Assembly: GCA_044892525.1 (NCBI GenBank)
Contig: CM097885.1
Coordinates: 232,314,001 to 232,378,000 of the forward strand
From: Schmidtea polychroa
Taxonomy: Eukaryota
DNA length: 64,000 bases
Reading direction: 5' to 3'
The notes under the pieces: model-generated
The model's database searches: none
What the model was told of the DNA's origin: nothing
Seen by the model: only the letters and a program-made list of their open reading frames with translations
Shown: piece by piece, positions 11,475-54,578 of the stretch
Numbering within the stretch: the stretch's first letter is position 1
Layout of the letters: each line of letters opens with the position of its first letter
Translations under genes and position numbers: made by a program

Positions 11475-11539
<65 letters not shown>
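11475..11539. repeat. (TAA)n microsatellite abutting foldback MITE A
   Basis: Direct reading. Confidence 0.97.
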
Positions 11540-11540
<1 letters not shown>

Positions 11541-16234: not shown

Positions 16235-16257
16235 GTAAGATTGATTTCAACCAAAGA

Positions 16258-18753: not shown

Positions 18754-18775
18754 TCGTTGCATGCCTTTTTTTATA

Positions 18776-18836
18776 TCGCGTCTGTGTGCGCGGTCTGGTT
18801 AGACCGAATATTGTTGGTGTGCGCACACAGATGCGA
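18776..18836 (+). promoter_or_regulatory. GC-rich inverted motif pair / hairpin upstream of an orphan ORF
   Basis: tcgcgtctgtgtgcgc (18776-18791) and gcgcacacagatgcga (18821-18836) are 15/16 complementary; inner hairpin cggtct-ggtt-agaccg. Followed by a 48-nt intron-like segment GTGAGT (18861) ... TTTTAG (18908). Function is inferred. Confidence 0.5.
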
Positions 18837-18897
18837 GCAATGGAAGCTCGGTTGTTTTTGGTGAGTAAGTTTTTGATTGTGAATTTTTATTTTGATT

Positions 18898-19227
18898 TGA
18901 TGTTTTAGAAATTATTGATTCGATGGATTGTTAGAATTAAATTGTGATTTGTTTAAAATTGGTAAAGTTTTGAAATGTATTTTGGAAGACATATGGAATT
19001 GTTTGAAATGTTTTTTGAAAGAATGGCGGTCGAAATGAATTTGCGATGTGATGTAGGTTGTGATGTTTTAGAAATTATTGATTCGATGGATTGTTAGAAT
19101 TAAATTGTGATTTGTTTAAAATTGGTAAAGTTTTGAAATGTATTTTGGAAGACATATGGAATTGTTTGAAATGTTTTTTGAAAGTATGGCGGTCGAAATG
19201 AATTTGCGATGTGATGTAGGTTGTGAT
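18898..19227 (+). repeat. Near-identical tandem duplication with a 163-bp unit
   Basis: tgttttagaaattattgattcg at 18901 and 19064; one substitution noticed (gaaagaatgg vs gaaagtatgg). Confidence 0.92.
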
Positions 19228-19826
19228 CAGAAATTTTGTCCTACATCTTTTCGAAACATTAACTTTGTGAAAGGCGATCTCATTTATACTGGTTTCAAAG
19301 GAAAAATTCTCGATAAATTAATCGTATCGATTGTCACGGAACTTTCACAGTTGTTGCCAGCATTTTTTATGATTATGCATGGGATCGAGTCTTCTAAATT
19401 CACAGATAAGTTCGTCAATAAAAGCAACGATATTGTATTATGTATTCGTGAGGAAATAATATTGAATCATGCTATGTCGGATCTTTCAAATCGATTTTTT
19501 TGCAACACGGAAATCAGAAATTATTTAATTGAAGAATTATCCAACAGATTTTCTCAGTTGTCCGAATTAAAACATTTGGGTAAGTCGAAGTTTGAAATCG
19601 CGCGTGTGCTTCGACGGAAACAGCTACTGGATAAAATGGCGTTTGTCTATGTCTATGTTTATATTGATCAATTCAATTCCCAATCGGAAGAGAGGCGACC
19701 ATTAGGATGTTCAATGATGGCATTATCTGATGATATCGAACTGGACAAAATGACATTATTCAAAATTGATCCACTGTCCTCTTTGGAGAAAAATAAAATT
19801 CTTATTCGTTCGTTTGATCTGAATCA

Positions 19827-19909
<83 letters not shown>

Positions 19910-19929
19910 CATTATTTATAAAGTCATGA
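19138..19929 (+). CDS. Orphan ORF, 230 unique codons followed by a (TTA)n-derived poly-Leu tail
   Basis: Long stop-free frame in AT-rich DNA with protein-like composition and CDxGCDxKFC near the N-terminus; no family recognised. Confidence 0.55.
19828..19909. repeat. (TTA)n microsatellite abutting foldback MITE A
   Basis: Direct reading. Confidence 0.97.
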
Positions 19930-20150
19930 TTTCTTGGTAGCAGCATTAATTCAATGTTAAACAATTAAATGATTATATAAGCATTTTGCTGCAAAGTATA
20001 TATTCAATAAAATGGAAGAATTTTCAACTATAAGATATCAACCATAAAAAACAATCTATCTTAGCAAGGACTATCTTATAGTCGAAATTTTTTCATTAAA
20101 TACATTATTCGCAGAAAAAAGGCTTAAATTATCACTTTATTGTTTTAATA
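19927..20150. mobile_element. Foldback MITE family A, diverged two-armed copy
   Basis: tgatttcttggtagcagcatt ... caaggactatcttatagtcgaaa ... ggcttaaattatcactttattgtttta. Confidence 0.8.
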
Positions 20151-20404
20151 TTACTATTACTTTTATTATTATTTTGAGATTTTTCGTTATTATTTTCAAA
20201 ATTAAAATTTTTAATTATCCAATCATAGAATTGAAACTGGTGACAAACCATTATTGGTTCTTTCGAGGTCATATTTTAAGTCAACAAGAAATATTCAATA
20301 AAGAAATAATATGAAACAGCTATAAGAAAATCGAAGTGGAAAGATTTAATTTAGAGGGACTAAAACTGTTAAAAAAGAGAACTCCTATCTGAAGATTTCG
20401 TTCT

Positions 20405-20872
20405 TTACTGAGCACTACTCAAAGTACTCGCTCTTCTTCCTTTCAATCCGAATAAAACACAGGTGTCGAACTCAGGGGGAATTTAGAAGTTTTTCGTCGA
20501 GGTACGTATGAGGTAAAAATGATTCTTGGTTGAATTTGTATCTGCTCAACGCCCGTACAAACTCTGCAATTACAAGTCCATAAATAGATTGTTTATATCT
20601 ATAATATTCTAATCCGAAGTTTAGACAGTTTTTCAAAAAAACAAAATGAACTTAGGCCAATTGTTCTCATTTTGTTTGAATGATTGGGACTTCCAAAACG
20701 AAAAATCTGATTTGAACCGTCATTATTGAGGTGTGCATAAAGGAGAGAGATCTAAATATTTCAAATAGATTCGTTTAATCGAGAATAAACTAGGAAATTC
20801 CTGCGAAGTAACATGCTCAAACCATTCAAAAATCTGACACAACACTAAAGGCTTCAAAAAACCAATATTCAT
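20405..20872 (-). pseudogene. Possible frameshifted orphan ORF (about 155 codons if repaired)
   Basis: MNIGFLKPLVLCQIFEWFEH... / LYAHLNNDGSNQIFRFG... / LKNCLNFGLEYYRYKQSIYGLVIAEFVRALSRYKF...; the frame switches fall at a (CT)n run, T7 and C5. Confidence 0.3.
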
Positions 20873-22536
20873 TTAGAACTCATTTTTACCTCTCAATTCC
20901 CCAAATTCGACTCACGGTAATCAATTCAACCCTATTTCCAATTTCTCGACAAACCTAAAACAAACATCTTAGTAATACCGGCAATCTCAATAAAGGGTAA
21001 TGAGAAGCCTGAACAATTTCTGCTGTTGTGTGGTCATTCGCGTCTGTGTGTGTTTGCTTTTTGAGTTGATAGTGAATGTAAGATTATTGATTTTTTTCTT
21101 ATTTTATAGGAAACGGTTCTCAGTGGTGTTTGATGTATCATATCGCGTCCGTGTGTGCGTTTGTTTTTTGGAATTAATTATTCGATTATTGTTGGAATTA
21201 TTCATTTATTTATGCAAATCAATTGAGTTTTTTGTAATTTTTCCAGTTTGTTTTATGACATTAAATTAATAAAATCCTTTGTGGAGTATTTATATTGTTT
21301 TCGTTGTGTAGATTTTTTGAAAATAAATTATATTATGTTGGTTTGAAAAATGATAAACCATAAGAATATGAAGCGAATTTCAAAGGTCTTAATAAATAAA
21401 TTATGGCCACCACAGGCGGATATCCCCATAAACCTGCATTAAAAAAGAATATATTCAACATAATGAACTGTCACATTTCGAAATTTTGTGAAACCAACAT
21501 GATGTCAAAAAAATAAGGGAAATATATATTTGTATTTGCTAACGAATTTATTAATAACAGACAGTATCCACAAAATATGCAATGGAATAATAATACCGGG
21601 TTTGATAATTGGGTTTGTTGATCAGTGAATGTTTAGAAAATCAAAGTCCAGTTTACTCTTTTAAATCAAAATGTTAAACAGAGTGGTCTTTATCATTGAA
21701 TACTCGTCATTCACTTTCACATGTTTCAAAGTTAAATTTATTCATTGGTATTTTTATCAATGCATCTTTCTTTTACCTTATCTCTGAATTTTTCTAACAA
21801 ATGACTATAAATTCACAAAGTTATGCAAAAAGACATTAGGACAATAAAAAGAAACCAATAGTCAGGAAAAGATAAATTTGTATGAACTAGAACGAAAGTA
21901 AAATTCAAAGAAAAAAATCACAAATAATTCTAAAATTAATGAGTTGCAGTATAATCAGGCACATTCGTACAAACAATTCTCAAAGATTGAGACCCAGAAG
22001 TCTAGGTTTAACTATTTCAGTATCTCAATGGTCTATTANNNNNNNNNNNNNNNNNNNNNNNNNNNNNNNNNNNNNNNNNNNNNNNNNNNNNNNNNNNNNN
22101 NNNNNNNNNNNNNNNNNNNNNNNNNNNNNNNNNNNNNNNNNNNNNNNNNNNNNNNNNNNNNNNNNNNNNNNNNNNNNNNNNNNNNNNNNNNNNNNNNNNN
22201 NNNNNNNNNNNNNNNNNNNNNNNNNNNNNNNNNNNNNNNNNNNNNNNNNNNNNNNNNNNNNNNNNNNNNNNNNNNNNNNNNNNNNNNNNNNNNNNNNNNN
22301 NNNNNNNNNNNNNNNAATAATACATAAAAACCATGACATATTTGTACAAATTTGGCAAGTATATAATTATATCTACACGGAAATTTTAATTATATTAAAA
22401 ATTTCATCATTTTCAAAAATATATTTTATCTAACTGTCAAATTTTCTAATAAAATTCATTTTATTTATTTGGCCAAAACTTTTCATTAAAAATATCGATT
22501 TAGAGAAAAAACTAACAAGAAAAAAAAATTATTTAC

Positions 22537-22686
22537 CTGCGTTGAAACTTCTTTGGAATGATTCCCATTGGCATTAGAGACCGCTTGAGTATTTATCAAA
22601 TGACAAGACTGCTGTAGATGTAGTTCCAATTGTTGACAATGTATTTCTTTGATCTTCAACTTTTCTGAGTGTTCTTTTAAGCGATT
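22537..22686 (-). CDS. LZTS: 150-nt internal exon of the LZTS-like gene
   Basis: AAACAG| NRLKEHSEKLKIKEIHCQQLELHLQQSCHLINTQAVSNANGNHSKEVSTQ |GTAAAT; phase 0/0, compatible with both neighbouring exons. Confidence 0.72.
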
Positions 22687-25600
22687 CTGTTTAAATTTAC
22701 ATATTAGTTTAATCGGAATAAATTTATAAAAATAAAATAATCAGCTTTGAATATTAAATAATTAAATAGTCTAAAATTGTTATTAAAAAGTATGAAACTA
22801 ATTGGAATTAGATTCTGTTGACACAATCAAAGTACCAAAATGTTGCTGAAAAGTTGCTCAAATTATCAATGGTAGAAAAAAATGAACTATTTGTAACAAA
22901 CAAGAGTTTTTAATTCCTCTTTTATTAAAATTTTATGCTTTTTATGTCCAGAAATCTAAATGTGAAATTGAAGATGAACAAGCCAGATTACAATATTATA
23001 AGAAATTATGTTGTTTTAATAGTCATTTGTGGAATTTCGGAGTTTTTGAAAAGTGTTTTAATTACATCTAAAATTTTCTTTTCTAGTTTGAAAAATAGGA
23101 TTTCTTTTTTTACTCATGTAAATACACCCAAAACATATAAATAGCATTAAAACAAAATTTTGTGTAAAACAATTTGTAAACAAGATGATTTTTATTTGTA
23201 ATTTTTGTTATATAAAGTTTTAACCACTAGTTACTCTTATTTATAAAAAATACCTTAGTTTGATAAAGTTAAAACTCAACATATTTAAGAAAACATTGAA
23301 AACATCACATTAATTAAATAGGAACACAAATTTTCAGTTTCTTTTATGTCAATTATGGGTTTTATATATCTTCACAGAATGTTTTTTAAAGCTGGAGCTA
23401 TATGAAATTCAATGTTTTTATTATTATAACGTTTTCTTGTGGTTTGTATTGAAGATAATGTGGGTAATACAGTTTGATATAATTATGCAGTGATATTGGT
23501 ACAAGATTTATTATTGTCAAATGTAAAATAATGAGGATATTATAGCTTAATTCAAAGCCTAAAATCATTTTTAATGTTTAATGGAAATATCAGTCCCTTT
23601 CTGTTTACCAAACCATAATTAAATTTCATTTCAAAATTTTACTTTTTCTGATAATTATTTTTGTAATACAATTTTAATTTTTAACTTTTCATCTACTCTA
23701 AATTTAATAATCCCTTGAATTTCTTAGAAAGCAGAATTTTTATTATATTAATATTTTAGACTTTAATTAGAAAAATAAATAGTGAAAGATTATCTATCAA
23801 TTTTGTTGAAGTCATTTTCAGATTATTTCTTTTATTTCCTTTAATGATTTGAATTAAGAAATTGAAATCTTTTAAAATATATATTATTGAAATAAAAATT
23901 TTAAAGTCTCAGATTTTATATGAAATAGAACTTCAATTCCCTGTAGAATTATTAACAGCAGGCAATAAATGTGGGGACAGAAAATTTATAATAAATTTTA
24001 TTGGACATTTAATATTAAAATTTGCCCAAATGTCTGCGTGAATTTTTTAATTATTAATTAAAATTATAATTAACAATTAAAAATAAAAATGAAATGTGTC
24101 ACTCAAGCAAACATTTGACTAATATAAAATATATTATTAATAATTGGGCGCAAACTAAATATTTTATTTTAAACTGCTCAACTACTTCAGTAAAAAATAA
24201 AAGTAAATTAATATATTACTAATTAAATTAAGTGAAATTGAGAAAAAATAATGTTGATTTTTAGAATGTCAAATTTTGTTTTCATTCTATGATTTTCAAC
24301 TATTATTTTTTATTTTCTATTGCATATTTTTATTTTTTAAATTGGTAAAAAAAAAATTGTGTAATAATTATATCTTTTAAAGCAACTAAAAATCTAACTC
24401 GTATTTCAATTACTGCTATTGTTATGTAATGTTAATGGAAACCTAGATTTGGTCTGACTACAGTCTATTTGTGATCCGCATCATTATCGAGCTGTACCCG
24501 TCCTTATAAATGTTTTCGCAACAGCGCGGCGGGCCACATCCATCGCTAAAACAGCCTGACTATATTTGGGTAAGCCACACTTGCCGTCACAGCCAGTCCC
24601 TTTTTCCAGAATTTAGTTAGCAGTGGGAGGTGGTTTTCTGCGGCCTCACTTTTCACAATTCACTGCAGTCACGTGACAGAAACAATATATTTATGCTTGT
24701 ATTGTGATTCAAGATCAAAATTAAAGCCTATCAGATAACTATCAACATTTTAATAATATCACCCATTACAAATTTCTAGTCAAGATGAAATGTTTAAAAT
24801 TTTTAAACATAAAATTTGATGAAAGTTTAATACATTTTAATGATTATTTCAGTAATGTTTAATATATGAATTTAATATTGCCACCTAACTACGCTAGTAC
24901 GAACTCCTAAGAGTCAATCTTTAAGTTTTTCTTAGAAATAATTTGTTTAACTACTTGAATAATATTTTGCAAACCACAGCTTTTATTAGCACCCTACAGT
25001 TTCTTGTGCTTCAAAGGATTCATAATTCAAGCTAAAACAAAAAAAACTATTTTCAAAGAATCCATTGACTCAAAAATTACATAATCTAACTTAATGAAAT
25101 AAATTCGCGTTAAGAAATGTATTAATTCCGGCGGTGCTATTTCGATCAGTTAAGTCTAATATACTAACTGAATTATAATTTTTTGAAATTTACAGTTTAA
25201 ATTAGAAAATTTATTTTGTATTAATTTATTTTTTATATTTAGATATTTAAATTTTTTCACAATTTATTACATAAAATATTCAAAATTTTTACAAAATATT
25301 TTCATTAAAATTNNNNNNNNNNNNNNNNNNNNNNNNNNNNNNNNNNNNNNNNNNNNNNNNNNNNNNNNNNNNNNNNNNNNNNNNNNNNNNNNNNNNNNNN
25401 NNNNNNNNNNNNNNNNNNNNNNNNNNNNNNNNNNNNNNNNNNNNNNNNNNNNNNNNNNNNNNNNNNNNNNNNNNNNNNNNNNNTGCAAACCACTCTCTTA
25501 ATTGTATAAACAGCATCAGAAGTTCGGATTCCGAACTATATAAATAATCCTCAAATTCAAATAATTAATTAATTATAATTTAATATAATAATATAATATA

Positions 25601-26799
25601 ATTTTAATATGATATTTACTGATTATATAAAAATAAATTTCAAAAAAAGAGCGGCTTCTAAAAAATTATCTAAACGCTTTACTTTATATATCTATTTTAA
25701 TTTAAATTTAATAAATTGAAATTTTGTGATGACTTCAAATTGGAATTTCTAATTATAAAAGTCGAATAGAAAACTAATTTTATTTCTTTTCAGTTGAATT
25801 ATATTTTTTAGTTAAATTCAAATTTTAAATTGGAAAATTGTTTTCCTAATTTTCATATTGTAATTTAAAATAGAAATTGTTTAAATATTCAAAAGAATTT
25901 TTAAAAAGGAATTAAAATTATTCGAGTACAAATAATAACAATAAGTTTTATTTATTGTTATATTACAATCTTCAATTTTAAGAAGAGTCTTACTCCTCTT
26001 TCATAACTGAACTTTGAAAGATAAAAATTTTGTGATGCATTTGATAAATTCGTATAAATATGTTATACTAATGGAGTGCGTTTTACGACTAAAATGAGAT
26101 GAGGGAGGTCGAACAATTGTTTGAAAAAATTATAATTGGTGAGTGACTCTGTCATTAACTTTCTGGCAATAATACCTTTCGAAATACAACAGATCATCTA
26201 AATGCATTATTCCAGAAGAGAATCTAAGACGTTGATCTTATCCACAAATTTTTAATGTTGAGTGTTGATATTATTTTCCCCGTTGAACATAAGAAGTAAT
26301 TGTAAGATTTGCAAATAAGCCTTCAACATTATAGATCAAACCATACTATGAATTTATAAATACCGATCTGTAAGATTAAAAAAAAATGAATTAACGGGGA
26401 ATTTAAAGAAACATAACACTTATAGATTAAGTAAGTCAATGTGTACAAGACAGAGTAGAGACATTTTCGGAGTGAAACCGTTGAACATTTGAAAGAATAT
26501 TAGATAATAGACAATGTAAAAGTGACTTTTGCTAGGATGTTCTAGCGAAAATATTTGTTGGTTTATTATATATAGATTTTAAAGGGTTTGATACATTGAC
26601 CTAATTTGCCATTTCCCCCGAAACAACTAGTTAAAATTATTTTAGAAATATTTGTATTTAATTCTGAATAAAATAATCCATAATAGAATAATACATTATC
26701 GATAATAAATTTACTACAGTTATCGATTATGGAAATAATTAGCTTGTTTAAATATTCGACATTTGTCATTGTTTAATAAATATAATTTTAAAAGAAACG

Positions 26800-30559: not shown

Positions 30560-30980
30560 TATTGTTACATGTAATGAAAAATGAATTTTTTACAATAATC
30601 GCAAACGTTTGTCACAATGGGTGATGAAAGTTGAAGTGCTGGAACACAATCCGAAACTTAATTTTCACCAGGAGAAAGCTAATTATACTTGCTTAGTGGT
30701 CTAAAACCACATTATTCACTACAGCTTCATGAAACCTGGTCAATCAATTATAGTCAACGTATATTGTAATTAACTGGATCAAATGATGAGCTAGCTTGTA
30801 ATTAAATAGTCCAGATTCATCAATAGAAAGAGACTAATCGTCTTTCAAGACAGCTTTAACCATAATTCACTCACAATGACTCTTAGACTACAAGACCTGA
30901 ACTTGAAACCCTTATGACACCCATCGTATATACATTAACTTGTACTGACTATCACTTATATAGTTTTTAGAACATAAAAC
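30560..30980 (+). mobile_element. Decayed mariner transposase catalytic-domain fragment
   Basis: IVTCNEK*IFYNNRKRLSQW, IIHYSFMKPGQSI, RFINRKRLIVFQD and HPSY...TDYHLY. Confidence 0.8.
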
Positions 30981-37379: not shown

Positions 37380-38583
37380 TTAGGTTGGTAAAAAAGGAAT
37401 ACCGTTTTCTGCATAGTTGAACTTTAACGTATAATATTTGTTTAAATGCTTCATTATTTAATGCTATATTGCATTTCTGAATCGTTGAATCCAGATCAGT
37501 AAATTGATAACAATTTTTATGTTTATATTATTTAAGGTAATTAATCAATGATGAAAATTAACGAAATCCGAACAATTTACCTTTATGAATATAAAAGAGG
37601 TCTGAAAGCATCAGATACAACTCACAATATGAACGAGGCATTTGGCCCGAATACAGCAAACGAACGATGGTTCACAAGGTTTAGAAATGAAAAAAAAGTC
37701 TTGAAGGTGAAGTGCATGGTAACCGACCATCAGTCATTGACAACGACAAATTAAAGGCATTAGTTGAAGCCTATCCAAGTACAACATCCAGAGAAGAATT
37801 GGTTTTAACAGATCCAACAGTTTTAAAACATCTCAAAGCAATGGGGAAAAAGAAAAAAATAGGCAATAGAATTGCAAGAAAAAGAAACAAATTGCCGTTA
37901 TGAAGTGTTGTCAGTGCTGCTTATTCGTAACAGAAGCGACCTGTTTCTCAACCGCATTATAATGTGTGATGAGAAACAGATCTTGTAAGATAACTTAAGA
38001 CGATCGGCTCAGTGTTTGGATCACAATGAAGCGCTAAAACATTTTTTCCAAAACAGAAATTAGATCAAACAGGGTAATGTTGACCATTTGGTGGTCTCAA
38101 TTTTGGTAATTCATCACAGTTTCTTGAAATCGGGCAAGACGATTCCGGTGGATATATACGTTAGTGAATTTGATGAAAGGAATAATAAACTTCAGCATAT
38201 GTGACCAGCTTTAGTCTTTAGAAAGGGCCCAATACTTCTAGATGACAATGCTCACCTACACGTTTCAAAAGTGACTCTGCAAAAATTGAACGACCTTGGA
38301 TACGAAACTTTGCCTCATCCGCCTTATGCGCCAACGGATTCCTATTTCTTTAAACATCTCAAAAACTTCCTACGAGTTCGTGGACTCCAGAACTCCTGAT
38401 TTTTATTTTGCTGGAAATAGCAAACTTGCTTCTAGATGCCAAGTGTGTAGATTTTACTTAAAATAATTTAGGTTTTTAAGTATTTTACTTTAAATACTGA
38501 GGCATATTAATAAGGGATTTTATTTTTATTAATATACTTTATTATGAAATGAGTTATTTTCTTTTATTTACTTACCAACCTAA
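37380..38583 (+). mobile_element. Near full-length decayed mariner (cecropia subfamily, Hsmar1-like)
   Basis: TA-flanked TIRs TTAGGTTGGTA / TACCAACCTAA. Translations MMKINEIRTIYLYEYKRG...NEAFGPNTANER, RPSVIDNDKLKALVEA, KGPILLDDNA and LQKLNDLGYETLPHPPY. Confidence 0.95.
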
Positions 38584-39666
38584 TAATTTTATAAAGATAA
38601 TTTGTAAACAATTTGACATAAACCAATAAAAAATTTTATAAATATCAATAATAAAAATTGCTTTAATACAACAATTACATATAATTTATAATCTTGGATA
38701 AATGTCATAAAAATAAGCAATTCTATTGAAACTTTTATTACTTCTAGTTAGTATTAAGAATCGTAAACAATTTTATAAATCAATAATTATTAATTTTATA
38801 TTTTCTTATTTCATTTATTTACCTATTTTTAGAATATAGAATCTATTAGAATCTATATTATAGATCAATGTTTTTTTTCTATTCAACACGACTTATAAGT
38901 GGTTTTTTCGATATTTTTTTAAAATTTTACATTTGTTTGAAATCAATCTTTTCTGGAAAAAATATAACCACTGGATATACACATTTCAAATTCATTTACT
39001 CTCTTTGAAATATGGATTACATGTCAAAAAAAAAATTTGAAATCTTTGCTCTAATTTCAGTTAAATGTTTTAAAATTTTAAATGATTTAGATTTTAAATA
39101 TGATTAAAAAATTCAAAATTGGCCTTACAACTCGTTTCAACCGATGGTACATTGTAATCATCCATCAGCTTACAAAAAGATGGAACAATAACGTAAAAAA
39201 CAAGACTACTCTCGACAGAAATTTGAAAGATTTCGTTCGATCAACAGACGAGTAGTCTGTTCACGAACATAAAGCCTTTGAAAAGAATTATTTTATTTTA
39301 AAGTTTTGCCTTTTTTCGAGTACTAAAAATAATATAACACCTGAACATATTAAAATATTTTAAGGGTTTGATCAAGGTGATGGATCAAGGTAACTATTCC
39401 GCTTCCATTATAGCTATATTGCAACTTTTCCCTCTGGAAATGATATGAACAGAAATTCACACAAACATTTAATAAAAACTTGAATAAAATAAGTAAAATT
39501 TCTGATGTTAAATTTATAGTCTAAATCATTAATTGCTGTTCCAATTTTCCTTTTGTGTAATACAGTCAATTTCAAAATTACTTGATCACTTTTCGTGCTT
39601 TATCAGATTTTCTTCAAATTCATCAAGGATTTCTGTTATATCAGAATTACCTTTTAAAAGTATAAA

Positions 39667-39790
39667 GTGATGATTTCTTGGTAGCAACATTCATTATTTA
39701 AAACAATAAAGTGATAATTTAAGCCTTTTGCTGCGAATAATGTTTTTAATGAACAGATTTTTGACTGCAAGATAGTCCTTGTTAATCTCC
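39667..39790. repeat. Half copy of foldback MITE family A
   Basis: gtgatgatttcttggtagcaacatt...aagccttttgctgcg...agatagtccttgttaatctcc. Confidence 0.8.
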
Positions 39791-40429
39791 TTTTAAAAGA
39801 TTAATCACTCGCACATAATTATCTATAAAGTTCTTTTGTAATAATGCTTTGTCTTTTAATCTTTGTATGCATGCAAAATAACTTGTAGATGCATTTTTAA
39901 GCCAAAACATTCATTAAGGCCTCCAGTGTCTTCGAAATAATTTAATTCCTCTGATAAGGAAGTTCATCATAAATAAAAATATTTGGGATAATTTCTTGTA
40001 ATTTACTATGTAAATTAGTTTAAGTGTATTTTAGATGAGCTTTTACTGTGTTATATTACAATAAATGTATGTTTCTGTTGTTAAAATTATTAAATTATTT
40101 AAAAATGGCTTGTTACAAAAGAGATTCAATAAGGGAAATATCAAATAAATTTTGCTTAGGAATTATCGAGGCAACAGATTATAAAGAATTTCAAATCAAA
40201 ATAAAACCAAACGTTTAAGACTTAAAGTTTCTGAAAGAATATTGAGCATTTCACTTACGTACTTATGTTACCTTCGCTTTCATGGCACTTGCGCTTACAA
40301 AATAATAAATGTAACCTCGAAAAACATAAATTCGATATTATATTTGTTTAATACATTGAATTAATTATTTCATTCTTCATATTTCTTGATGAATTGTTGG
40401 TCAAGTAAAGGTAAATAGCGTCAATATAA

Positions 40430-43115: not shown

Positions 43116-43874
43116 CTGAAGTTGAATTATTTCGAAATTTTTGCTTTTTAATTTCTGTCTCAATTTTTCAATAAAATGAGTGGCTTTGTTGATAAGATTT
43201 TGGTTGTTGATTTCATTCATTGATAATTTATTGTTGACGACTTGTAGAATTTTCAGTTGGTCCATGTGGCCATTGGGTTTTGTGGCATCTAAATACTTAT
43301 ATATATCGTATTCTCGTTTTTTCATTTTCTGATCGAGATCATTTGGAGTTAATCTGACTCCCGAATCACCACTGGGACTTTGCTGAGATTCAAAATTATG
43401 TTTATTGAAAGAGTTTTTGCTTGGAATCGGAGATGTTGGCCGTAAACTTTTCGGGCGAACGCAATTTTCAGAAATCGTTGCGCGTGACATTTCATCAATC
43501 AATTTTGGTGGATCGCTTTCTGAATATTGGGAAAACGAATCTTCGCAGGACTCTTTTCCAATAGTTGAGTCATTATAAAATGATCGATCATTTGAGGCAG
43601 AATATGTGGAGAAACTCCTTATTAAACCGTTTGAATACAGTTTTGATGTATACTCGTCATAAGGTGGAGGTTTGGGTCTGGATATTAATCCGTTATGACC
43701 CGAGGAATTTGATGAATGAACTGAACCAGCATCCAGATAATTAATGTGATCATGAAACGATCTTGAAATATTATTTTTTGAAGAGTTGTTTCCATTGAAA
43801 TTTCTTAGTCTTTCATGTTTTTCACTTCTAACCGTTGGAAAACAGAGCATATAATTATTTTTCTTTTTGCTCAT
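43116..43874 (-). CDS. LZTS: First (or first visible) coding exon of the LZTS-like gene
   Basis: 253 open Ser/Pro-rich codons (SPSGDSG) ending CAG|GTAAAA. The spliced join KSKNFEIIQLQ|NRLKEHSEKLKIK resembles LZTS QKSGEISLLKQQLKESQ. Confidence 0.7.
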
Positions 43875-46518
43875 TAAATTTAAGAAAAAAATTTGAAATT
43901 AAATAGAAACGAAAATTTAATTTTGAATTAGTAACAAATAAATTTTTACTAATATTAGAAATATTTTTCTTAAATTCTAAATTCAAAATTCAACATTTTC
44001 ATAGTTTATAGAGTTTAGCAATTGAACTATTAAAACAAATTCCTTAAAAGTTCGTGAATAATTTTTATTTAAAATAATTTACATTTTTTATAAAATATTA
44101 ATTTAATTGTTAATTGTTAAGATTTTTATGTATATAAAACTTTTTAAATATTTTTAGAAAAATGTAAATATTTTAATGTGAAAGTTGATTTTAAACTTTT
44201 AAAATTATTAGACAATGTTCGTTCACGACACTATTTTTAATAAATCCTTAATAAATAATTATTTTAACCACAAGAATACATGAATTAACTGTGATATAAA
44301 GTTAAAAACTTGATGACTTCTAAATGTGTCATCCGTGAATGACCGTCCGTTGATGACTCCTAAATGTGTAATCCTTGTCATCCGTGGTGAAAAGGTAATA
44401 TTAGGAACGAGGATGTTAGTTTATTTAAATATATTCACATGTAGAGATGACATCACTATCCTTCTGCTTATTTTCAAATTAATTTTAATAATTAATATTT
44501 AATATGCAATTTTTTATTTGTAAATGAAAAATTTTTGGATAATATTTTTAAAATTTAAATATCTTAAATATTTATGTGTTCATATAGGTTTTTAACTATC
44601 ATATCTTTGATTGGTAGTCATGAACATCTAAGTGAAAATGCAATGGAAATTAGTTTTGGAAACTGAGCTTATCCTTCAATTGATTTGCAGCCATTTTAAG
44701 CAGTTGCAACATTGTTCTTAATGGCAGTAACCGTGGAAATAGATATGACTAGAAAGCTAGATCATTTGGTGTTTTTGGTCAACACTGAAGCTATGGAAAC
44801 GAAACAATATGTCAATGAAGAACACTAACAAGACGAATAAAGCAAAAAGTACTTTCATAAGCTTCACTCTTAAAAACTTTAAACATTAACAAACATTGCT
44901 CCAAAACATGAGATGCTTTGAACCGGTGAAAAAGTTTATTGTTTTGACACCTACGATATTGTAATTTTGCACTTTTCCACAATATTCTAATAATCATTTT
45001 CCAGTTAATTTTAAATCACTAGTTTAACTTTTAATGACTTAAAGAATTTAAAAATAAATTTTCCAAAATAAGAATTTCAAAAAAATATTTTGTGTTTAAA
45101 CATAAATTATTTTTTAAAAATTTTGAGAAAAAAAAGTATGGTAAAATATACTATGAAACTTTTTCAATAAGAGTATGATTCATCAATGTTTTTGTTAAAT
45201 GGACAGCCGAATTATTTGAAAAGTATGTATCAAAATACTAGGGGAGGAGGGTTAGAAAAAAAATATTTTGAAAAATTATAGTCATAATGTAATAAGTCTT
45301 ACCCTTCCTGTCGGGTTTGTTAATACTTGGAAAAATTGTTAAAACAAATTATGACTCTTATTTTCATCTGACATGACTTCTTTGAACACCTAAATGAGTC
45401 ATACCATGAATCACATTCCGAATGACATGTGCCAGAGGGCTCACATCGACCTACTAACATTTGATTATAGATTGATCTTTAACAGCATTTGATCGATATA
45501 TAAGGTTTAAATTTGAATACAATGATTCGGGAGTAGCAAAAATTAAGAACGAACTTGGAAGGGACAATGTTTTGCATATACCTTGTTATTTAAGTTTTGA
45601 AAAGGCCGTCAGACATTCGATAATACATCGTTACCTTCAAAATGAAATATTGATTCCACCTAACTGGTGCTATCATACATTGAAATCCAGAAACTCTCTG
45701 ACATTTAACAGATATCTACTTGTCCACAGTTAAATATTCCTTTTCAGACGTAATTTTATGCCAAATTGACCAAAGATTTTGAATGGAAGAAATCTTTTAA
45801 AATTTCACGACAGATAACGTTGTGGTCAAGTCGATATCCGATTTCCCATATAAATATATGACTTGACTACTTGATACATATTAACCACTATAAAACTGCC
45901 TTCTACATTCATTTTGGGTGGAAATTTGGGTTCGTTTTACTTATTTTGAACCAAAGTTTTGAGTTTCTAAAATAAAATGAAAGTTAACATGTAATACAAG
46001 TTTCATCTAATATGTGTTTTCAGATTGGCGAGAAACCCAGCATGGGAAATTTATATTATATTCTACGAAGAATAGTTAATGTTTTTTTTTTAATTTTCGA
46101 AATGGCATACAGCCATTTACGACGGCAGCGGTTTTGACGAATACAATGACATTTTTCTGAAAAAAGACTAACACTTTTGAAAAAAGAGGAAAGATTTTTA
46201 TCAATCACATATGAAAGGACGTTAAAATATTAGAAAATATCTTAATGTCTATCTTGGTTTCAATATCATCAGCAATATGTCGAATTGCAAATATTTTCAT
46301 ATCATCTTATGTTAGATTGTGACAAACTACATTTTTGCTAGCTTTTCGATTTTCTTCAGAAATTTCACTATTGAATAACTTTATCTTCGAGTTGACAGAA
46401 AAATATTAGGATCACTTGATAAATTTTGATAAATTTTTATGATATAATTCGGCATCGATTTTATCAAATTTTCGAGTTGCTTATATTAAAAAAGTGCCAT
46501 CAAAAAGTGACGTCGCTA

Positions 46519-48180
46519 TGAACGCTTCGCCGCCACAAGCGGGGGGCAAATCAAAAAATCGTCCCACGACGGGGGACAGATACTTAAAGAAGCCTCGCCT
46601 GGAAAATGAATTACCTGCAACCAAATTTATTATGCAATCAATTGAAGAAATTGCAAAAGAAAAAGAATAGAACTCAAGACCAGTGTTCATCAAACCAAAC
46701 CTGGAAAAAACTACCAACATTGATGTCACTAAAGAAAACTTCAGCATAATGAGGAAATTCTTCATTATTAACAGCATATACAAGCACCAATCGCCTGAAG
46801 ATCAGAAGAAATCAATAATAATATCAAAAGATATTATTAACTCTATAGATGGATACAATGAAATAACTATCAACTGGCAGAAAGTAAAAAATGAATTAAG
46901 AATCCCAGACAAAGAAAATATGGACAAAGAAAATAAAACCAACTCCGAAATTCCCGGAATTTAGAGATGAAAAAATAATAAGCATAATAGAACAAAAGCT
47001 CCTAAAGATAAAATTCGATAATGAAGATTTTGTGGCATTTTGTGAACGTTGCGTGGTGGAAGAAGCAGAAATCACTGAAATGATTGCTCCGATTGAGATG
47101 GAGACTATTACTTATAACAAAGACGGTCTGTACTTACCAAAAAACAATGAAATACTTCAATTTTATGATCAGGAGATCATTTATTGCAGTACCTAGAGGT
47201 CTCAACTTAAAGAAATATATACCATTCCATCAAAATAAGGAGGATAATAATACGCAAATAGTAAACCAAAAAGAAGAAAATGAAGCTAATCAAGAAATAG
47301 AGACAAATGAAAATGATCAAACAAAAACCCAAGCAGAAACTGTTCAAGAAGAAAATGATCAAACAGAAATTGCCAAAATCAATTGCCAAATAGAAGACAA
47401 ACACAAGGAAGATCTATTCCAATTAAAAGATGGACCAAATATAGACTGGTTGCAACCAAAGGAAGAAATAATACCAGAAAATGAAGATACAAAGAATGAG
47501 ACTAAAATCTCTATAAAAGAACTAGCAAACAAAACCCAAAATGAAAATGAGGACTCAAATGCCAAAAATAAAATGAAAAGAAAAAAGAAAAGAACAACAA
47601 TAAAAAGAAAAAAGAAAGAAAACAAATAAGAGCAGCCTTGATCAATGAACTTAAAGGCCCGTTAAGAGCCGGTTATGACATAGAATATCATCAAATGGAC
47701 GAAGAAATAAATATGAATAAAGAAATATTCAAAACACTAGAAGAAATAACAAAAGTAGTGTGCAATTACTCCATTGAAGATTTACGGAACTATTTTATAG
47801 AATCTATCAAAGAAGAATATGGAAATAATCAAAATGAAATAGATATTAATGGAAAGATCATTAGATATATGATAGAAATTGCCGAAAAGGACATCAAACC
47901 AATGAAACGTATAGTAAATGTGATTAGAAAAGAAGATCAAGAAATTAAATTATTAAAAGAAACTCAAAAGGAGAAATGAACCCCTCCAAATCACAACCCA
48001 AGAAACAATGAAAAGAAACTTACAAAATGAAAATTACCGATGAATTGTGGATTCATCTAAATGGTCACTTTGAAAACCCTTATGCCTACCTATTCAAGTT
48101 GCTGAATTTAAATATAAGGCACCTGGTAGGTTTAACCTTCACAATGGGGATACAATACAATGTATACCTAAAGTGACTTG
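46519..48180 (+). pseudogene. Decayed long ORF of unknown family (possibly a non-LTR retroelement ORF1 or N-terminal region)
   Basis: ATG at 46519 (MNASPPQAGGKSKNRPTTGDRYLKKPRLENE), then successive open stretches (46683, 47084 and 47638 ORFs) joined by isolated stops and frameshifts; E/N/K/Q-rich, A-rich strand. Confidence 0.5.
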
Positions 48181-48223
48181 AAGATAAAGCAATAGTAAAG
48201 ATATCTAAAAAATATCAATTAGT

Positions 48224-48540
48224 CTTTCTGACACCTCTTGCTACAAACTCTGTAAAAATCAAAAGGATCGATAGACCGCGCTTTCACGGTCTGTATTCGT
48301 ACTGAAAATCAAGATGAAGGAAGCTTTTCTCTTTTTAGTCAACACCAGGTTTCTGTCCTAGCTGAGATTCCCTTGGGACATCTGTGTTACCATTTGACAG
48401 ATGTACCGCCCCAGTCAAACTCCCCACCTGACACTGTCCTCAAAACAGTTCAATTGCATCTGAAGATCGCTATTTTTTCACTAAAAAAATTAACAAAAGT
48501 TAATTATACTTCATCATTGAGTAAGTAGAGAAATAATCTA
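48224..48540 (-). rRNA. Isolated, diverged 28S (LSU) rRNA fragment (pseudogenic)
   Basis: The reverse complement carries conserved LSU blocks GACAGTGTCAGGTGGGGAGTTTGACTGGGGCGGTACATCTGTCAAA, TTTTCAGTACGAATACAGACCGTGAAAGCG, TATCGATCCTTT and GCAAGAGGTGTCAGAAA; no other rDNA nearby. Confidence 0.93.
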
Positions 48541-48976
48541 AATACTGTACTATAATGTCATCATTCAATTTTAACATACCACAAATATTCAAACTTCTTT
48601 ATGTTAATTTTATGTACATTTATTAAAATAAATGTTATAACAATGTTATTTGTATATATCAACAAAATTATAAACTATTTCAAGGAAGAAGATATTAAAT
48701 TTGTTTATGTATTTATTTATTATAAAAATAAATCTAACATTGTATTATTGCAGACAAAAGTACAAAGTATTTAGGACGGATGTAATTTACATGAAATAAT
48801 TATGTTTTAAACATTTTACATCTACCTTTATTAAAGAAATGAAACTTTATATATTGTAATAGACTGGTAAAATAAATATTGCAGCAAGAGAAAATATAAT
48901 AAAACTGCGTTAAGATAAAGTGCCATAAATGTATAACTAGACGTGGAAATTTCATTTATTAAAAATCTTCACTATG

Positions 48977-49019
48977 AATCAGTAAATATATCAAAAAAAC
49001 ATCGATATATTTACTGATT
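48977..49019. repeat. Foldback family B hairpin copy
   Basis: aatcagtaaatatatc - aaaaaaacatc - gatatatttactgatt. Confidence 0.88.
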
Positions 49020-50267
49020 GATAATCAAGCTTTTTAATAAATACAATGTCATTCGAAAAGAAACCAGTTGTGAAATTTGAAAAAAGTTCTTATAAGACGT
49101 GGAAAGCCCATAAATGTGACATAGGTGAGTCAATAACTTATTAATCACTCGGAATAAATTTGACAATAGATATAATCGGTGATGTAAAGTCACATTATAA
49201 AAATTGATTTATCAGAAAAGGTTGAAAGGGCTCCAAGAGAAAAAATATGTTTGGAAAAACAAAATTTGTAATTTGTTTATTGTAACCAAAGTCAAAACCA
49301 ATGGGTTTCGGGCATCCATATTATGACAAAATAATTAATGGTACACCAGGGAAAATATTTATTAATTTGATTATTTTTTTAAATGATTGTTAAAATTAAA
49401 TTATTATTTACATTATTCGAGAATTTGAAAAACTTATAAAATTTATATTTTTACCGAGTATAGACTTAAACTTATTGACGGAAATATGTAATAGTAATAA
49501 AAAGTAACTTAGGTCATTTTTTTCCAAATTTATGACTAAATACTCTAATATTACAATAATAGCTTTTTATTATTAAATTTACTATTTTACACTAAATATT
49601 TCAATTTCGAAAACCAATATCATAATATGAATTATATTACTCTTTTCAATCAAAATAAATTAAATGTGAAATAATATTTGAAATAATATTCAAATACAAT
49701 TAAATTCTTTAATTTAAAAATGTAAATTTTATAAGTAAATGCAAATAAGAAATTATTTTTTTATCAGATATAGACTTTTTAAGCTTATTGATTAGGTAAT
49801 AGAAATAAAAAGTAACTTTTTTTCAAAAAGTCCTTTAATATTGTATTCTATTCATTATTAAATTTACTATTTTACACTAAATTTTTCGAAAGCAATTATC
49901 ATAAAAATAAAAAAAAACAATAATCAACCAAAATAATTTAAATGTAATACTCAAATATTTGTCTTAAAAATTATATCAAAATTAAATTAAATACTTCACT
50001 AATTTTAAGTAAAGTTTTTTAAAATTCTCAAATAAATGCTAACAAGATATTAATTTATTAATCATTATAGACTTTTTAAACTTATTATTGGAATAAAACA
50101 ATAGAATGATATTCAAAATATATACAATTTAAAAATATAATTAAAATTAAATTACATACTTTAAAAATTTGGTAAAATGTTGGTAAAATACCATTCACAG
50201 CTTGTTATGTAATAAAATAGTCACGGCTTGTTATGTAATAAACTAGTTTAAATTATATATCCTCCTC

Positions 50268-50465
50268 ACTTATATTTCCCCGATTCTCTATTTTCCACTA
50301 ATTATTATCACTTATATCCCCCGATTTTAAATTAATTATTCACTTATAACCCTCACCCCCGATATTTAATCAATTATATTCCTACGATTTTGATTAATTA
50401 TTCACTTATAACCCCGATATTTAATCAATTATATTCCGCCGATTTTGATTAATTATTCACTTAAA
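50268..50465. repeat. Degenerate minisatellite (cacttata...ccgat...aattatt units)
   Basis: Direct reading of repeated cacttata and cccgatatttaatcaattatattcc blocks. Confidence 0.8.
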
Positions 50466-51044
50466 ACATCCCCACAAATATTTCTTTTAAAAGTTTTTTT
50501 TATTAAATTTATGATTTTTATGAAATAATTTTAAATAAATTCAATTAATATATTTCCATTCTTATCAACCTTCATCTTATCTATGCCCCTTCTCAGTATT
50601 TACCTCCCATGATCCATAATGAATTATTCTACGAATTATTTTCACCCATTTGAATTTATCATCGAGTAATGAATAATTTCCTCACTTTAATGAAGATTCT
50701 TACCGCATTCATTGTTAATTTTATCAAAGTTTAAAGAATATTTCTCTTTCCATTTTACATTGCTTACCATTTTAGAATTTTTATCGAAATTTATGATAAT
50801 TTTACTGATTCAATGATAAATTTGAAAGAGTTAATTCGTTTTATTATATATATATATATATATACTCTGAGTTTATCCGACAAAATATTCTGTCACAAGG
50901 GTACTACTCACATTCAACATGTCGCAAGGGTACTGATCATAAAGGTATTTAATACTTTTATTTGAATGATTATTTAGGCAAATTTGTTGTTTAAGGCATT
51001 CATTGATAATTTTTAGAGTTGATGGTTTTAGTAAATATTCAAGT

Positions 51045-51190
51045 AAATTTCTATCATTTTTGTGAATTTTTACCGTTTTTTTGTGAATTTCTATTATTTT
51101 CATGAATTTCCGTAATTTTTAGTGAATATCTGTAATTTTTGTGGATATCTATCATTTTCGTGAATTTCTATCATTTTTGTGAATTTCATG
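51045..51190. repeat. Degenerate minisatellite of about 19-20 bp (ttttgtgaatttctatcat)
   Basis: Direct reading. Confidence 0.8.
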
Positions 51191-52369
51191 TTTATTGAAT
51201 GAATATTTAAAAATTTAATGCTAATTCTAAGGTAAATTTAATTAATTTCTTGATAATTGAATGTATTTTTATTGACTTGTTTTTAAATTTTAAATAAAAA
51301 TTTATTTTTAATGAAGTTAATAATTAGAGTTTGTACAACAATAGGATAAATTTTGATGAGGATATTGAATAATTTTCTAAGAATTTCATGTTGACTGATT
51401 AAAAATTTAAAGTTTTAATGGTGATAAATTTAATTGATAAATTTAATTAATTTCTTGATAATTAGGTTAATAATTAAGTGATAGAATAAATTTTCGATGA
51501 TAACTTTGTAATATATTTGACTAAATAATTTTTTCAATAATTTTCTAAGAATATTTACAAATTGATGAACTTTAAAAAACATAAGCTAAGAAACCAGTTA
51601 ACTTTATCAAGGACTTTAAATTTACTTGATAATTATTGTAGGATATACAGAAATTTAGTTTGCTGTTACTGCTTGAAAATGGTTGGTTGAATAGCTGAAG
51701 AATTATATATCATCTCCAGTTAGGTATTTGATGGTAAATATTTGTAGAAACTTTTAGTGAAGTTTGATCTTTTAGCGGGCTCTTATTATTTAGCTTCTAA
51801 ATTATTTCAATGGAAGAATGTCTGGTGTCTATAACAATTAATTAAAAGTCATATTTTTGAAGGGAAACAATTTATTTAAAACAGAAAATTATTAAGGGTG
51901 ATTATTATTTCTGAATACGCACTTTTGATACCTAACACCGAAATTGACCAGCCTAATTGAATAATTTAATGTGTTTATTGGTAATATTTCATCAAAACGC
52001 ACATTTTAACCCAGTAATGCAAAAAGAAAACTACGCGTAAAAATTACTTTTTAATCGTTATTTATTATGACATATTGTGTAATTTATTGTCAATGTACTT
52101 TGTGATCTTGTTATTTATTTGAAATTAACGAATATGATGAGTCAGTAGCCAACAGACAATAATTATTAATTAAAATAACAATATTTTTAACTTAATTTTT
52201 ATATAATTTTAATATAAATAAATTTCTGTATGGTAATTGTATTGTGGCCTTTGATGTTTCTGATCCCAAAACAATATCATGTTATCCATTATAGATATTG
52301 TGTATGAATGCCTGTAGTTGGTTTGATAAATGTTTGGGTTACATCAGTATTTATTATTTATTCAAGAAG

Positions 52370-53281
52370 TTTATTGTACATTTTTTCTCTATTAATTCTT
52401 TTTCACTCTCCTCACTGATTTGTCTTTCATGTAATAATTCGTTGTGTCTTTGCTTACATCCGGTAACCTTGCAGAAAGATTCTTTACGACATTCCTTGGC
52501 CATGTGATTTCTTTTGAAGCAATTCCTGCACAGTTTCTTTTCTTCGATGACTTTCTTCCTTTTTGAACTTGTGAGTAGCTTGAACCTAATCCAACAAATA
52601 TGTCAAAATCCTTCAAATCTCCTTCTCGAATTGGCCTGAATTTGTTTATCTCCTTTAACATTGATAAATATATCCTTTCATCCCCACCATATCGCCTATC
52701 CAACTTTTCTTTAGCCATTTGATAGGCCTCTGCCGAATATCCTAGGTTTTCAATTAACTTTAATGGCTCTCCGTGAAGGTACTTGTGCAGGTGAAACATC
52801 TTTTCAACCTCATCACCTTCCGCTTCGTTAACACACGCCGTAAAAGCTGCTTTCCATGGTTCGTACTTTTTTATCTTGCCTTCAAAGACAGGTATTGTAA
52901 TTTTTTGTAGACTTTTCAGTTTTCTTTTATGCACTGAATTATTTTTCTTGATTGTATCATCATTAACATTTTCTTTCTCTTCCATAAAAGATTGATTTGC
53001 TTTTCTTTCCATCAGTGCCCCAATTATTTCATGTTTTCCCTCGATCTCTTGCAGGTCTTTATCTAAGATTGCAGTGATGTCTAATCTTTGCAATTTTTTA
53101 CTGATCGTCCTCAGATCCCCTAATTCTTCATCTAGACTCTCCTTTTGATCTTCATATTCCTCCAACCATTCGCTAACTTCTTCCCATTTATATCATTGAG
53201 AATCTTGTTTCTCAATCTCGTTAATTTTCTTTTTTTCATTCTCTTTTTCGACAGTCCTTCTTCTAAAATCTCTTCGTCATT
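52370..53281 (-). mobile_element. gag: BEL/Pao Gag, internally deleted: N-terminal coil, DUF1759-like core and Cys/His knuckles
   Basis: KITIPVFEGKIKKYEPWKAAF...EKMFHLHKYLHGEPLKLIENLGYSAEAYQMAKEKLDRRYG; in another frame LCRNCFKRNHMAKECRKESFCKVTGCKQRHNELLH (about 52530-52429), typical of BEL/Pao. Confidence 0.92.
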
Positions 53282-53539
53282 GCCACTGCACAGCCTGAGT
53301 GACAAATGAAGTGTCGAACATACTTGTATTCTATAATCGTTCAATATTCTTTTATTTTCTAATTGCTTTCCTGCGTTTACTAACATTTGATAATTTACCG
53401 GAATTCCTTCTTTGTCTTGAATTTTTCCTTTTACCTTTTCAATCGTGTCATTCAATTCAACGTCAATAGTAATTGTCTTACCAGTCAGAGTTTTGATAAA
53501 TATTTGCTTCCTACTTTTCCATCGAAACTCAAAACCCAT
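53282..53539 (-). CDS. Divergent ubiquitin domain running into the Gag N-terminus
   Basis: [18 protein letters not shown]...[12 protein letters not shown]; 52/76 identical to canonical ubiquitin by manual count. An in-frame ATG lies at 53539; the Ub Met1 position reads AAG. Confidence 0.95.
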
Positions 53540-53574
53540 TACCCCGCTGGCCCTCACCCTTGACTTAGCTCGCA

Positions 53575-53702
53575 AAAACGCTGAGCTTTTTATTTTCTTT
53601 TTTTTACACTGTTCCCCTGGCTACCCGCTTTAACAAGTGCTGGAGCTTATAGCAGCACTTTTTCACGCTCGATAGGGAAGGGAGGATGGTTAATTTTACA
53701 GA
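53575..53702 (-). promoter_or_regulatory. GC-enriched spacer with LTR-like order TGT...TATAA...AATAAA...CA
   Basis: Minus strand: TATAA (53651-53647) inside the loop of an 8-bp inverted repeat (53635-53660), AATAAA (53594-53589). No second LTR copy seen. Confidence 0.35.
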
Positions 53703-53749
53703 AATGCAAATGAAATTTAAATGAATGCAAAATAGAATGTTTAAATCAC

Positions 53750-53945
53750 CCTTGATCAGCCAGGGCTGTCTCCACTGAAACATTGGTGTGTAGCCCCCTG
53801 AAGGGAACCACGCTCTGCTACCATGTTTTCGTCTAAGACACATAAGAAGAATTTCTTTGTAATTAATCGCATCACACGCTTTATTTGTACAAAACCATTG
53901 TTTGTTAAACCATTTAACGTGTCCAATAACTTGAGATTGAGCCAT
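53750..53945 (-). pseudogene. Frameshifted cold-shock domain (Y-box/Lin28-like)
   Basis: MAQSQVIGHVKWFNK, then shifted NGFVQI, and later TNVS; resembles GTVKWFNVRNGYGFI...ANVTG. Confidence 0.55.
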
Positions 53946-53948
53946 GAT

Positions 53949-54431
53949 TCAATTTGAAACATTGGATAATTGTTCAACACTTTGGCTAATAAACATTTGA
54001 ATTGTGTTGATCCTTTTAAGAGCTCCATTAAATAGAATATCATATTCATAAGTTAGCAAGTTTATCTTTTTATCGCTAATTTCAGAAATGGTTTCAGATA
54101 ATTTACGAATATCTTTAAATTTTTTGGGAAATTTCATAAACATATCTTGGAGTTCCTCTTCTGTCATTTCATGATATACAGAAATTAAATCGTTGATTTC
54201 CAATCGTTTTGATAAACTTTGAAAAATTGAATTAATGTCAATTAGAAATTTTGAAATATAAACGAATTCATAAAAATCTTGATTATCTATGACATTTACA
54301 TTACTTCCATTAATAATTTGCAACGATCTTGTTGAGCCACGATCACATGGACAAATTTCACTGCTGAAAAGACATCTCTTCGCTATATTGCTCATTGAAA
54401 TACGACATATCAAACATTCATTATCTTCCAT
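53949..54431 (-). CDS. Orphan 160-aa ORF with N-terminal Cys cluster (CLIC...C...CPC)
   Basis: Intact ATG-to-TGA frame whose stop lies 3 nt before the CSD ATG; no family recognised. Confidence 0.55.
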   Translation of the reverse strand: MEDNECLICRISMSNIAKRCLFSSEICPCDRGSTRSLQIINGSNVNVIDNQDFYEFVYISKFLIDINSIFQSLSKRLEINDLISVYHEMTEEELQDMFMKFPKKFKDIRKLSETISEISDKKINLLTYEYDILFNGALKRINTIQMFISQSVEQLSNVSN

Positions 54432-54562
54432 ATTTCACTAAGGCCGAAAATTCAAAAACAACCCTAATTACCAAAATTATAAATCAATTCTAAAAAACTT
54501 CCAGAATTCGAATCATATTTACAAAATCGATAGAAAAACCCAAATACAAAAAAAAGTAAAAA

Positions 54563-54578
54563 GCGCACACAGACGCGA
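54563..54578 (-). promoter_or_regulatory. 16-mer TCGCGTCTGTGTGCGC, identical to the 18776 motif
   Basis: Plus strand gcgcacacagacgcga, about 130 nt upstream of the 54431 ATG. Confidence 0.5.

Follow-up and report, generated by a model that had tools for sequence, protein, structure and literature searches.

What does one GC-rich 16-mer do in front of two open reading frames (ORFs) that lie 36 kb apart in a planarian genome? The question is raised by 64,000 nucleotides of Schmidtea polychroa DNA (GenBank assembly GCA_044892525.1, contig CM097885.1, positions 232,314,001 to 232,378,000; "the window" in what follows), with 27% GC and 1,112 N. An earlier note, made from the sequence alone, had seen two exact and three variant copies of the 16-mer and had proposed a shared promoter or terminal signal of an undescribed element family, linking ORF1 (locus 1, near 19 kb) to ORF2 (locus 2, near 54 kb), each beside a broken long terminal repeat (LTR) retroelement. 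The analysis presented here bears out the observation and gives partial support to the interpretation. The 16-mer is most likely a conserved cis-motif of cargo-bearing, LTR-like repeats, that is, a shared control signal of abundant retroelement repeats rather than the promoter of ordinary genes. More specifically, we take it to be a conserved signal, either of the promoter or of the 5' RNA, that belongs to LTRs with captured scraps of mRNA as cargo, a reading to which we assign a probability of about 0.5.

The 16-mer and the repeat at locus 2

Allowing up to three mismatches, the 16-mer has five matches in the window, where chance predicts a mean of 0.02 and none of 100 shuffles reaches five. 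These are precisely the copies that had been singled out, with the mismatches claimed for them, and the judgement that chance is a very unlikely source stands. The 200 nt 3' of each of the four sense copies are T/G-rich (T+G of 0.65-0.70, in the top 0.3-1.4% of 200-nt windows), and GT4-6AGAA, of which the window has six instances, is found at +126 at locus 1 and +80 at locus 2, so that the T/G-rich leaders described after both exact copies are real. ATGs follow the end of the motif at 184 nt (locus 1) and 131 nt (locus 2), with earlier ATGs in both leaders. These distances hold as claimed, but the locus 1 ATG, at 18975, opens only 40 codons, because a 163-bp tandem duplication (units 18898-19060 and 19061-19223, 99% identical; a recent event or an assembly artefact) spans the leader and the start of ORF1; the long frame begins at 19138. 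TG dinucleotides stand 14-24 nt 5' of each motif and define no boundary.

Locus 2 is where the motif can be placed in an element. Contigs of four runs (X1, X7, X9 and, from organism B, X11) were compared with 53400-57600 at 80% likeness; of their tables, 40 of 221 variants, 15 of 55 joints, 24 of 637 loose ends and 32 of 13,070 pieces are drawn on here. X7 and X9 may be RNA; summed contig depth, quoted below, is not copy number. In X1 the contigs add up to a depth of 150,668 for the bin that holds the motif and to 317,000-930,000 across 53823-54527, compared with 0-278 over the neighbouring VPS9-domain gene; two near-identical X1 contigs have depths of 304 and 392, and X11 covers the same stretch from motif to ORF2. 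Motif, leader and ORF2 are plainly a very abundant dispersed repeat. The stop codon of ORF2 is peculiar to the window copy (919,783 of 921,234 X1 depth and all X7, X9 and X11 depth have another letter at its middle base), and in other copies the frame is open into a further ~40 codons that open with a cold-shock-like stretch and then resemble a RanBP2-type zinc finger over its first half. Both likenesses were judged by eye; Pfam and PDB did not detect either.

This continuation ends in CA, directly before an 18-nt tRNA primer site that would presumably pair with initiator Met tRNA at its 3' end (no tRNA genes were found in the window). Locus 2 accordingly has two features of an LTR: CA set directly on a tRNA primer site, and dispersal at high copy. 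From the primer site at 53823 a BEL/Pao fragment runs into gag on the strand of the motif (DUF1759, E 9e-10), the pol part being missing from this truncated copy. The arrangement recurs elsewhere. In X11 the CA/primer-site junction is spanned, from 53804 to 53947, by a contig of depth 4161 that stays in frame despite gaps of 15 and 3 nt. In X1 a contig that differs from the window by its letter at 53789 can be aligned for at least 60 nt to either side of that position, and the junction of the repeat with the Pao leader is therefore not unique to locus 2. A subset of repeat copies thus ends CA on the primer site, with the BEL/Pao leader following. Upstream, X1 contigs (depth 4,798) join the motif to repeated DNA, whose X11 contigs stop short at 54595; with homology continuing above the motif in other copies, a strictly terminal signal, as had been suggested, is doubtful.

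One X9 contig shares only 53852-53899 with locus 2. Beyond these limits it has in-frame zinc-finger sequence on both sides, amounting on hand reading to a complete RanBP2-type finger, as if the repeat had captured a 48-nt piece of a zinc-finger transcript. Another X9 contig, of 1069 nt, is alike (86%) only over 53947-54047, a 100-nt core of ORF2 where the repeat reaches its greatest depth; to either side of this core the contig has open sequence of another kind.

For the rest, the ORF2 protein found no relatives among 24 candidates of near length or 504 longer ones, and none was confirmed for ORF1 or ORF2 among 261, 13 and 8 pattern matches. The ESM Atlas gave only leads below 0.9 for the ORF proteins, and single-sequence AlphaFold models have predicted local distance difference test (pLDDT) scores of 38 and 32. 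A CARD-like appearance of ORF2, noticed by eye, found no support. Four proteins of the window, including VPS9, had no exact match in the protein collection either; the host is perhaps poorly covered, so that blanks for the ORFs say little.

Locus 1, the hairpin and the rest of the window

At locus 1 the motif stands on the same strand as a Ty3/Gypsy fragment that is cut within its integrase zinc finger at ~18753, ~22 nt 5' of the 16-mer. Both loci do, as claimed, adjoin a broken LTR retroelement, Gypsy in one case and BEL/Pao in the other, on the strand of the motif. A scan of short frames in 19.9-22 kb and 26-28.7 kb gave no continuation of the integrase. A near-repeat of 13-14 nt flanks the Gypsy fragment (15210-15224 and 18753-18767) and may be chance or an insertion scar; the copy at ~15210, tried as a link to the region upstream of locus 2, gave p 0.066.

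ORF1 holds the one captured host piece that is firm. Among 1.84 billion representative proteins its single match is an island of 37 residues, in a cluster whose full-length member is proteasome subunit alpha-6. The rest of ORF1 has no relative (none among 283 candidates of near length), and matches to stem cell factor (E 0.01) are taken as chance. The description of two unrelated orphan ORFs therefore holds as to their being unrelated (BLASTP E 1.3) but not altogether as to their being orphans, ORF1 containing the island alike to proteasome alpha-6 and the stop that closes ORF2 being absent from other copies. The locus 1 leader, with its donor-like and acceptor-like sequences, may be spliced.

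The 16-mer and its inverted copy at locus 1 are the arms of a branched hairpin with z scores of -5.1 as DNA, -4.5 as RNA and -6.8 for the antisense strand; arm 2 overlaps a 12-nt self-complementary palindrome (18817-18828). The other three sense copies of the window fold no better than shuffles. At a loose end at 54547 (among the loose ends listed), one X11 contig has the second arm in inverted orientation, at ~23 nt from the motif (the spacing at locus 1 is 29 nt) and, like that of locus 1, with GTGT in front of it; X7 has an arm-like mixed consensus at the same loose end (two contigs, agreement 0.73, again among those listed). With a second arm in a relative of locus 2, the hairpin ties the two loci together beyond the bare 16-mer, and the supposed link between the 19 kb and 54 kb loci is borne out to that extent.

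Three known structures were considered for the hairpin and rejected. With Rfam models the window had no match at gathering score and, at E values up to 1, one chance-level match off the motif within 18.6-21.6 kb and none within 53.5-55 kb, which disposes of a known ribozyme or small RNA. A parvovirus-like T-shaped terminus fails because the inner hairpins are missing from the X11 version, and an RNA polymerase III terminator because locus 2 has no upstream arm. No instance of the hairpin patterns was found in metagenome and viral contigs, nine loci with the 16-mer among viral contigs are taken as chance in a large collection, and a literature search with a 12-nt core of the motif had as its sole match an unrelated paper on human oesophageal cancer.

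Features at and around the copies of the 16-mer (positions are those of the window)
Feature	Position	Strand	Remarks
Ty3/Gypsy gag-pol fragment	15488..18753	+	Pfam: zinc knuckles, protease, reverse transcriptase, RNase H, integrase zinc finger
16-mer, arm 1 of hairpin (locus 1)	18776..18791	+	exact; run of seven T and ATA directly 5'
Branched hairpin	18776..18836	+	16-bp stem (one G-U pair, sense strand), two small inner hairpins
16-mer, arm 2 (locus 1)	18821..18836	-	one mismatch
T/G-rich leader, locus 1	18837..19137	+	donor-like GTGAGT at 18861, acceptor-like TTTTAG
ORF1	19138..19830	+	~230 codons; then interrupted by (ATT)n run and common inverted-repeat element
Captured island in ORF1	19663..19773	+	25/37 residues (68%) identical to proteasome subunit alpha-6; tblastn E 1e-10
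16-mer variant	21038..21053	+	two mismatches, single arm, then T-rich tract
16-mer variant	21143..21158	+	two mismatches, single arm, 105 nt past the 21038 variant
BEL/Pao leader, ubiquitin-like domain, DUF1759 Gag, zinc knuckle	52357..53805	-	frameshifted, truncated
Primer binding site, 18 nt	53806..53823	-	directly after CA at 53824
In-frame continuation of ORF2	53824..53948	-	cold-shock-domain-like scrap, partial RanBP2-type zinc finger; ends CA, candidate LTR 3' end
ORF2	53949..54431	-	160 codons, core of high-copy repeat
T/G-rich leader of ORF2	54432..54562	-	sequence composition
16-mer at locus 2	54563..54578	-	exact; no second arm in window copy
Upstream repeated DNA	54579..54842	-	joined to motif in subset of copies; candidate U3
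Secondary insertion, miniature inverted-repeat element	54843..55250	.	8-bp target duplication; X1 depth ~1e6; loose ends 54846, 55215

The target duplication of the secondary insertion upstream of locus 2 suggests a hAT-type element. Further out, ending ~1.4 kb before the locus 2 motif, is the VPS9-domain gene (55963-57462, minus strand), in a single frame and covered by one X7 contig with three differences. In the BEL/Pao fragment a ubiquitin-like domain (53135-53620, minus strand; PF00240, E 3e-20) lies directly ahead of the DUF1759 Gag, in a region that is very deep in organism B. Around the two variants at 21 kb (20760-21250) the strand skew flips at ~21000-21040, from A/C-rich before to T/G-rich after, like a two-way promoter, and a 26-nt inverted pair lies at 20510 and 20867. 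The element that interrupts ORF1 belongs to a common palindromic repeat family with (ATT)n runs, of which there are five copies (4489-4877, 5383-5724, 11458-11725, 19917-20226 and 39650-39791). Three other fragments, all without the motif, are a hAT transposase tail (3491-4279), a second Gypsy fragment 51% alike to the first (10105-11224) and a mariner helix-turn-helix fragment (37545-37751). An isolated 28S ribosomal RNA fragment (48226-48569, minus strand; RF02543, E 1.5e-59) adjoins remnants of A-rich ORFs (46500-48200), possibly those of a non-LTR element.

Weighing the readings

Several observations weigh against an LTR signal common to both loci. The second arm is missing from three of the four sense copies of the window, and the hairpin is therefore not obligatory. 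The X1 depth declines from 921,000 (53950) through 400,000 (53892) and 276,000 (53868) to 163,000 (53844), so that less than one-fifth of the core depth reaches the primer site, and other copies depart from the window sequence already at 53947 (X7, X9) and 53904 (X11); this primer site may therefore not be where most of the relatives end. The Pao leader is preceded by a different LTR end in 20 X11 contigs and one X7 contig, and locus 2 may therefore be a recombinant at a shared primer site. Skips of 54 nt (X1, X7, X11) and 87 nt (X1, X7, X9) in ORF2 both start at the GT at 54304, as introns would, but at the acceptor ends the window copy lacks AG, and deletion by microhomology may have produced them. 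The window, in which both retroelements are truncated, yielded neither a second LTR nor a polypurine tract nor a defined TG start; nor was a target duplication noticed there, no valid search aimed at it having been made. There is also no flank homology between the two loci: 300-nt flanks compared with shuffles gave p 0.86 upstream and p 0.11 downstream, which the earlier note had itself named as part of what would tell against its proposal. The shared element-family signal is upheld in that the locus 2 motif sits in a high-copy element followed by an ORF, but not as one family with shared flanks. A weak likeness of the locus 1 leader to a 37-nt stretch downstream of 21143 (p 0.027) is one of ten comparisons.

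The missing homology, of flanks and of proteins alike, is what favours a first alternative, unlikely in our estimate, in which the 16-mer is the site of a host transcription factor that was put to use independently by a repeat at locus 2 and, at locus 1, by an orphan gene of the host or a retro-chimera, with no common family and with the inverted copy as a local duplication. The occurrence of single, direct and inverted copies and the splice-like leaders that follow the motif would suit such a site. On the other hand, none of the five matches falls on a host-like sequence of the window (the VPS9 ORF, an ORF at 43.1-43.9 kb, exons of LDH and Fez1), and to that extent the expectation that the motif would not be found at ordinary genes is upheld. 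An exact match of 16 nt is also long for a single factor, and the second arm recurs, with the same GTGT, in the locus 2 relative.

A more doubtful alternative has the loci as non-autonomous rolling-circle elements of the Helentron/DINE-1 type, which take up pieces of genes and neighbouring DNA and whose 3' ends vary; the 16-mer would then be a 5' subterminal repeat, with a short inverted repeat, common to unlike families. Near-identical subterminal inverted repeats (subTIRs) have been described between divergent Helentron/DINE-1 families (PMC4067079), a precedent for a motif shared by otherwise unlike elements. Locus 1 resembles the described 5' end, with its T run, 3 nt, repeat and nearby inverted copy, and the very high depth and variable 3' continuations at locus 2 would also fit. 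The resemblance goes no further. The arms are 29 nt apart (~23 in X11), as against 3-22 bp in DINE-1; a 3' subTIR with terminal palindrome is found at none of the five motif matches; there is no T run at 21038 or 21143, nor does the 5' layout fit locus 2, where the motif is not terminal and homology runs on upstream of it; and the frames scanned for domains (73, plus 50 short ones) contain no Rep/helicase. The exact CA/primer-site junction and the GT-anchored skips suggest an RNA intermediate instead.

Less likely again, the loci may derive from Burro-type giant Gypsy elements, as pieces of their accessory regions or long LTRs that were scrambled beside other retroelements. Like the repeats described here, Burro/GYPSM1 is planarian, carries accessory ORFs as well as host-like cargo, and has copies in the thousands (PMC6431247). 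Its cargo, however, consists of whole domains in a giant polyprotein (Gag, MATH, BIR, BCL2-like, Env-like and Pol), and no Burro domain named in that paper was found in ORF1 or ORF2, which were compared by domains alone; the internal region adjoining locus 2, moreover, is BEL/Pao. It is very improbable that the exact copies, although mutually inverted and followed by ORFs that both point inward, are the termini of one 36-kb DNA transposon with inward promoters, since the match ends at 16-17 nt, the outer flanks have neither target duplication nor homology, repeated DNA runs on outside the motif at locus 2, and the interior is a jumble of unrelated fragments.

The LTR reading can also be set against systems that it resembles. 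BEL/Pao elements, of which Flow families have been reported in Schmidtea mediterranea (PMC3118150), likewise have a DUF1759 Gag, a zinc knuckle and CA followed by a tRNA primer site; here, in contrast, a 200-codon cargo frame, several times deeper than the Pao leader, precedes the primer site, and a ubiquitin-like domain precedes Gag (the word "ubiquitin" is absent from the main text of PMC3118150). Chimeras made by LTR-mediated retroposition also join mRNA pieces of one or more genes in frame beside discontinuous LTR-element sequence (PMC5131818), but those described lie between parts of LTR elements and are mostly low-copy young retrocopies, whereas the pieces here are 40-110 nt long, apparently in the terminal repeat, and on a very abundant repeat. 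The motifs of Sirevirus LTRs (PMC2829016, PMC4728375) are similarly short, GC-rich, conserved between divergent LTRs, near the promoter and capable of forming hairpins; they differ in that the elements are plant Copia, with the motif repeated many times in each LTR, as against one or two copies here, and without a cargo ORF. Retroviral R regions and LTR-borne ORFs (HIV TAR, MMTV sag; PMC2664473) offer a stem-loop followed by a T/GT-rich tract and an ORF inside an LTR. In the planarian repeats, by contrast, the primary sequence is conserved, not structure alone, the hairpin is optional, and there are no retroviral genes. The 16-mer is not described in the available parts of PMC3118150, PMC4558846, PMC8532177, PMC11410931 and PMC12660999, and a literature search (Repbase, subscription papers and supplements being outside its scope) found no description of such an element; the repeat may well be filed in Repbase or a supplement under a plain name.

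How such repeats might work and what they would mean

If the 16-mer is a signal of LTRs, it would belong to the core promoter, at the U3/R border, and be recognised by a host factor. Its inverted duplicate, where present, would fold the 5' end of the RNA into a TAR-like hairpin, and the palindrome might aid dimerisation or packaging of the RNA; the 5' end of Ty1 RNA does carry cis-signals that help it to dimerise (PMC5454406). Capture of mRNA by LTR elements being known (PMC5131818), template switching onto co-packaged host mRNAs during reverse transcription could build the ORFs, leaving in-frame scraps such as proteasome alpha-6 in ORF1 and the cold-shock-like and zinc-finger-like pieces in the tail of ORF2. 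By way of a shared tRNA primer these LTRs could become joined, through recombination, to internal regions of Pao or Gypsy type. On this scheme, locus 1 and the copies at 21 kb would be LTR pieces of a diverged sister family that has retained only the motif.

Taken to its full extent, the proposal is of planarian cargo-LTR elements, in hundreds or thousands of copies, that share only a 16-nt promoter/hairpin signal, that ride on BEL/Pao and Gypsy machinery by way of a common tRNA primer site, and that build orphan ORFs by in-frame capture of 40-110 nt scraps of host mRNA. We hold that larger picture only tentatively and give it a rather small chance of being right. Should the motif turn out to be a host-factor site and nothing else, it would still be an undescribed candidate promoter element, of modest interest. 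If, on the other hand, the LTR reading is right, an abundant LTR repeat of an animal would work as a gene cassette complete in itself, by which small pieces of host mRNA are shuffled into new frames; one short signal would mark families with no other sequence in common and provide a simple handle with which to find them all; and these repeats would be a testable source of the orphan genes of flatworms.

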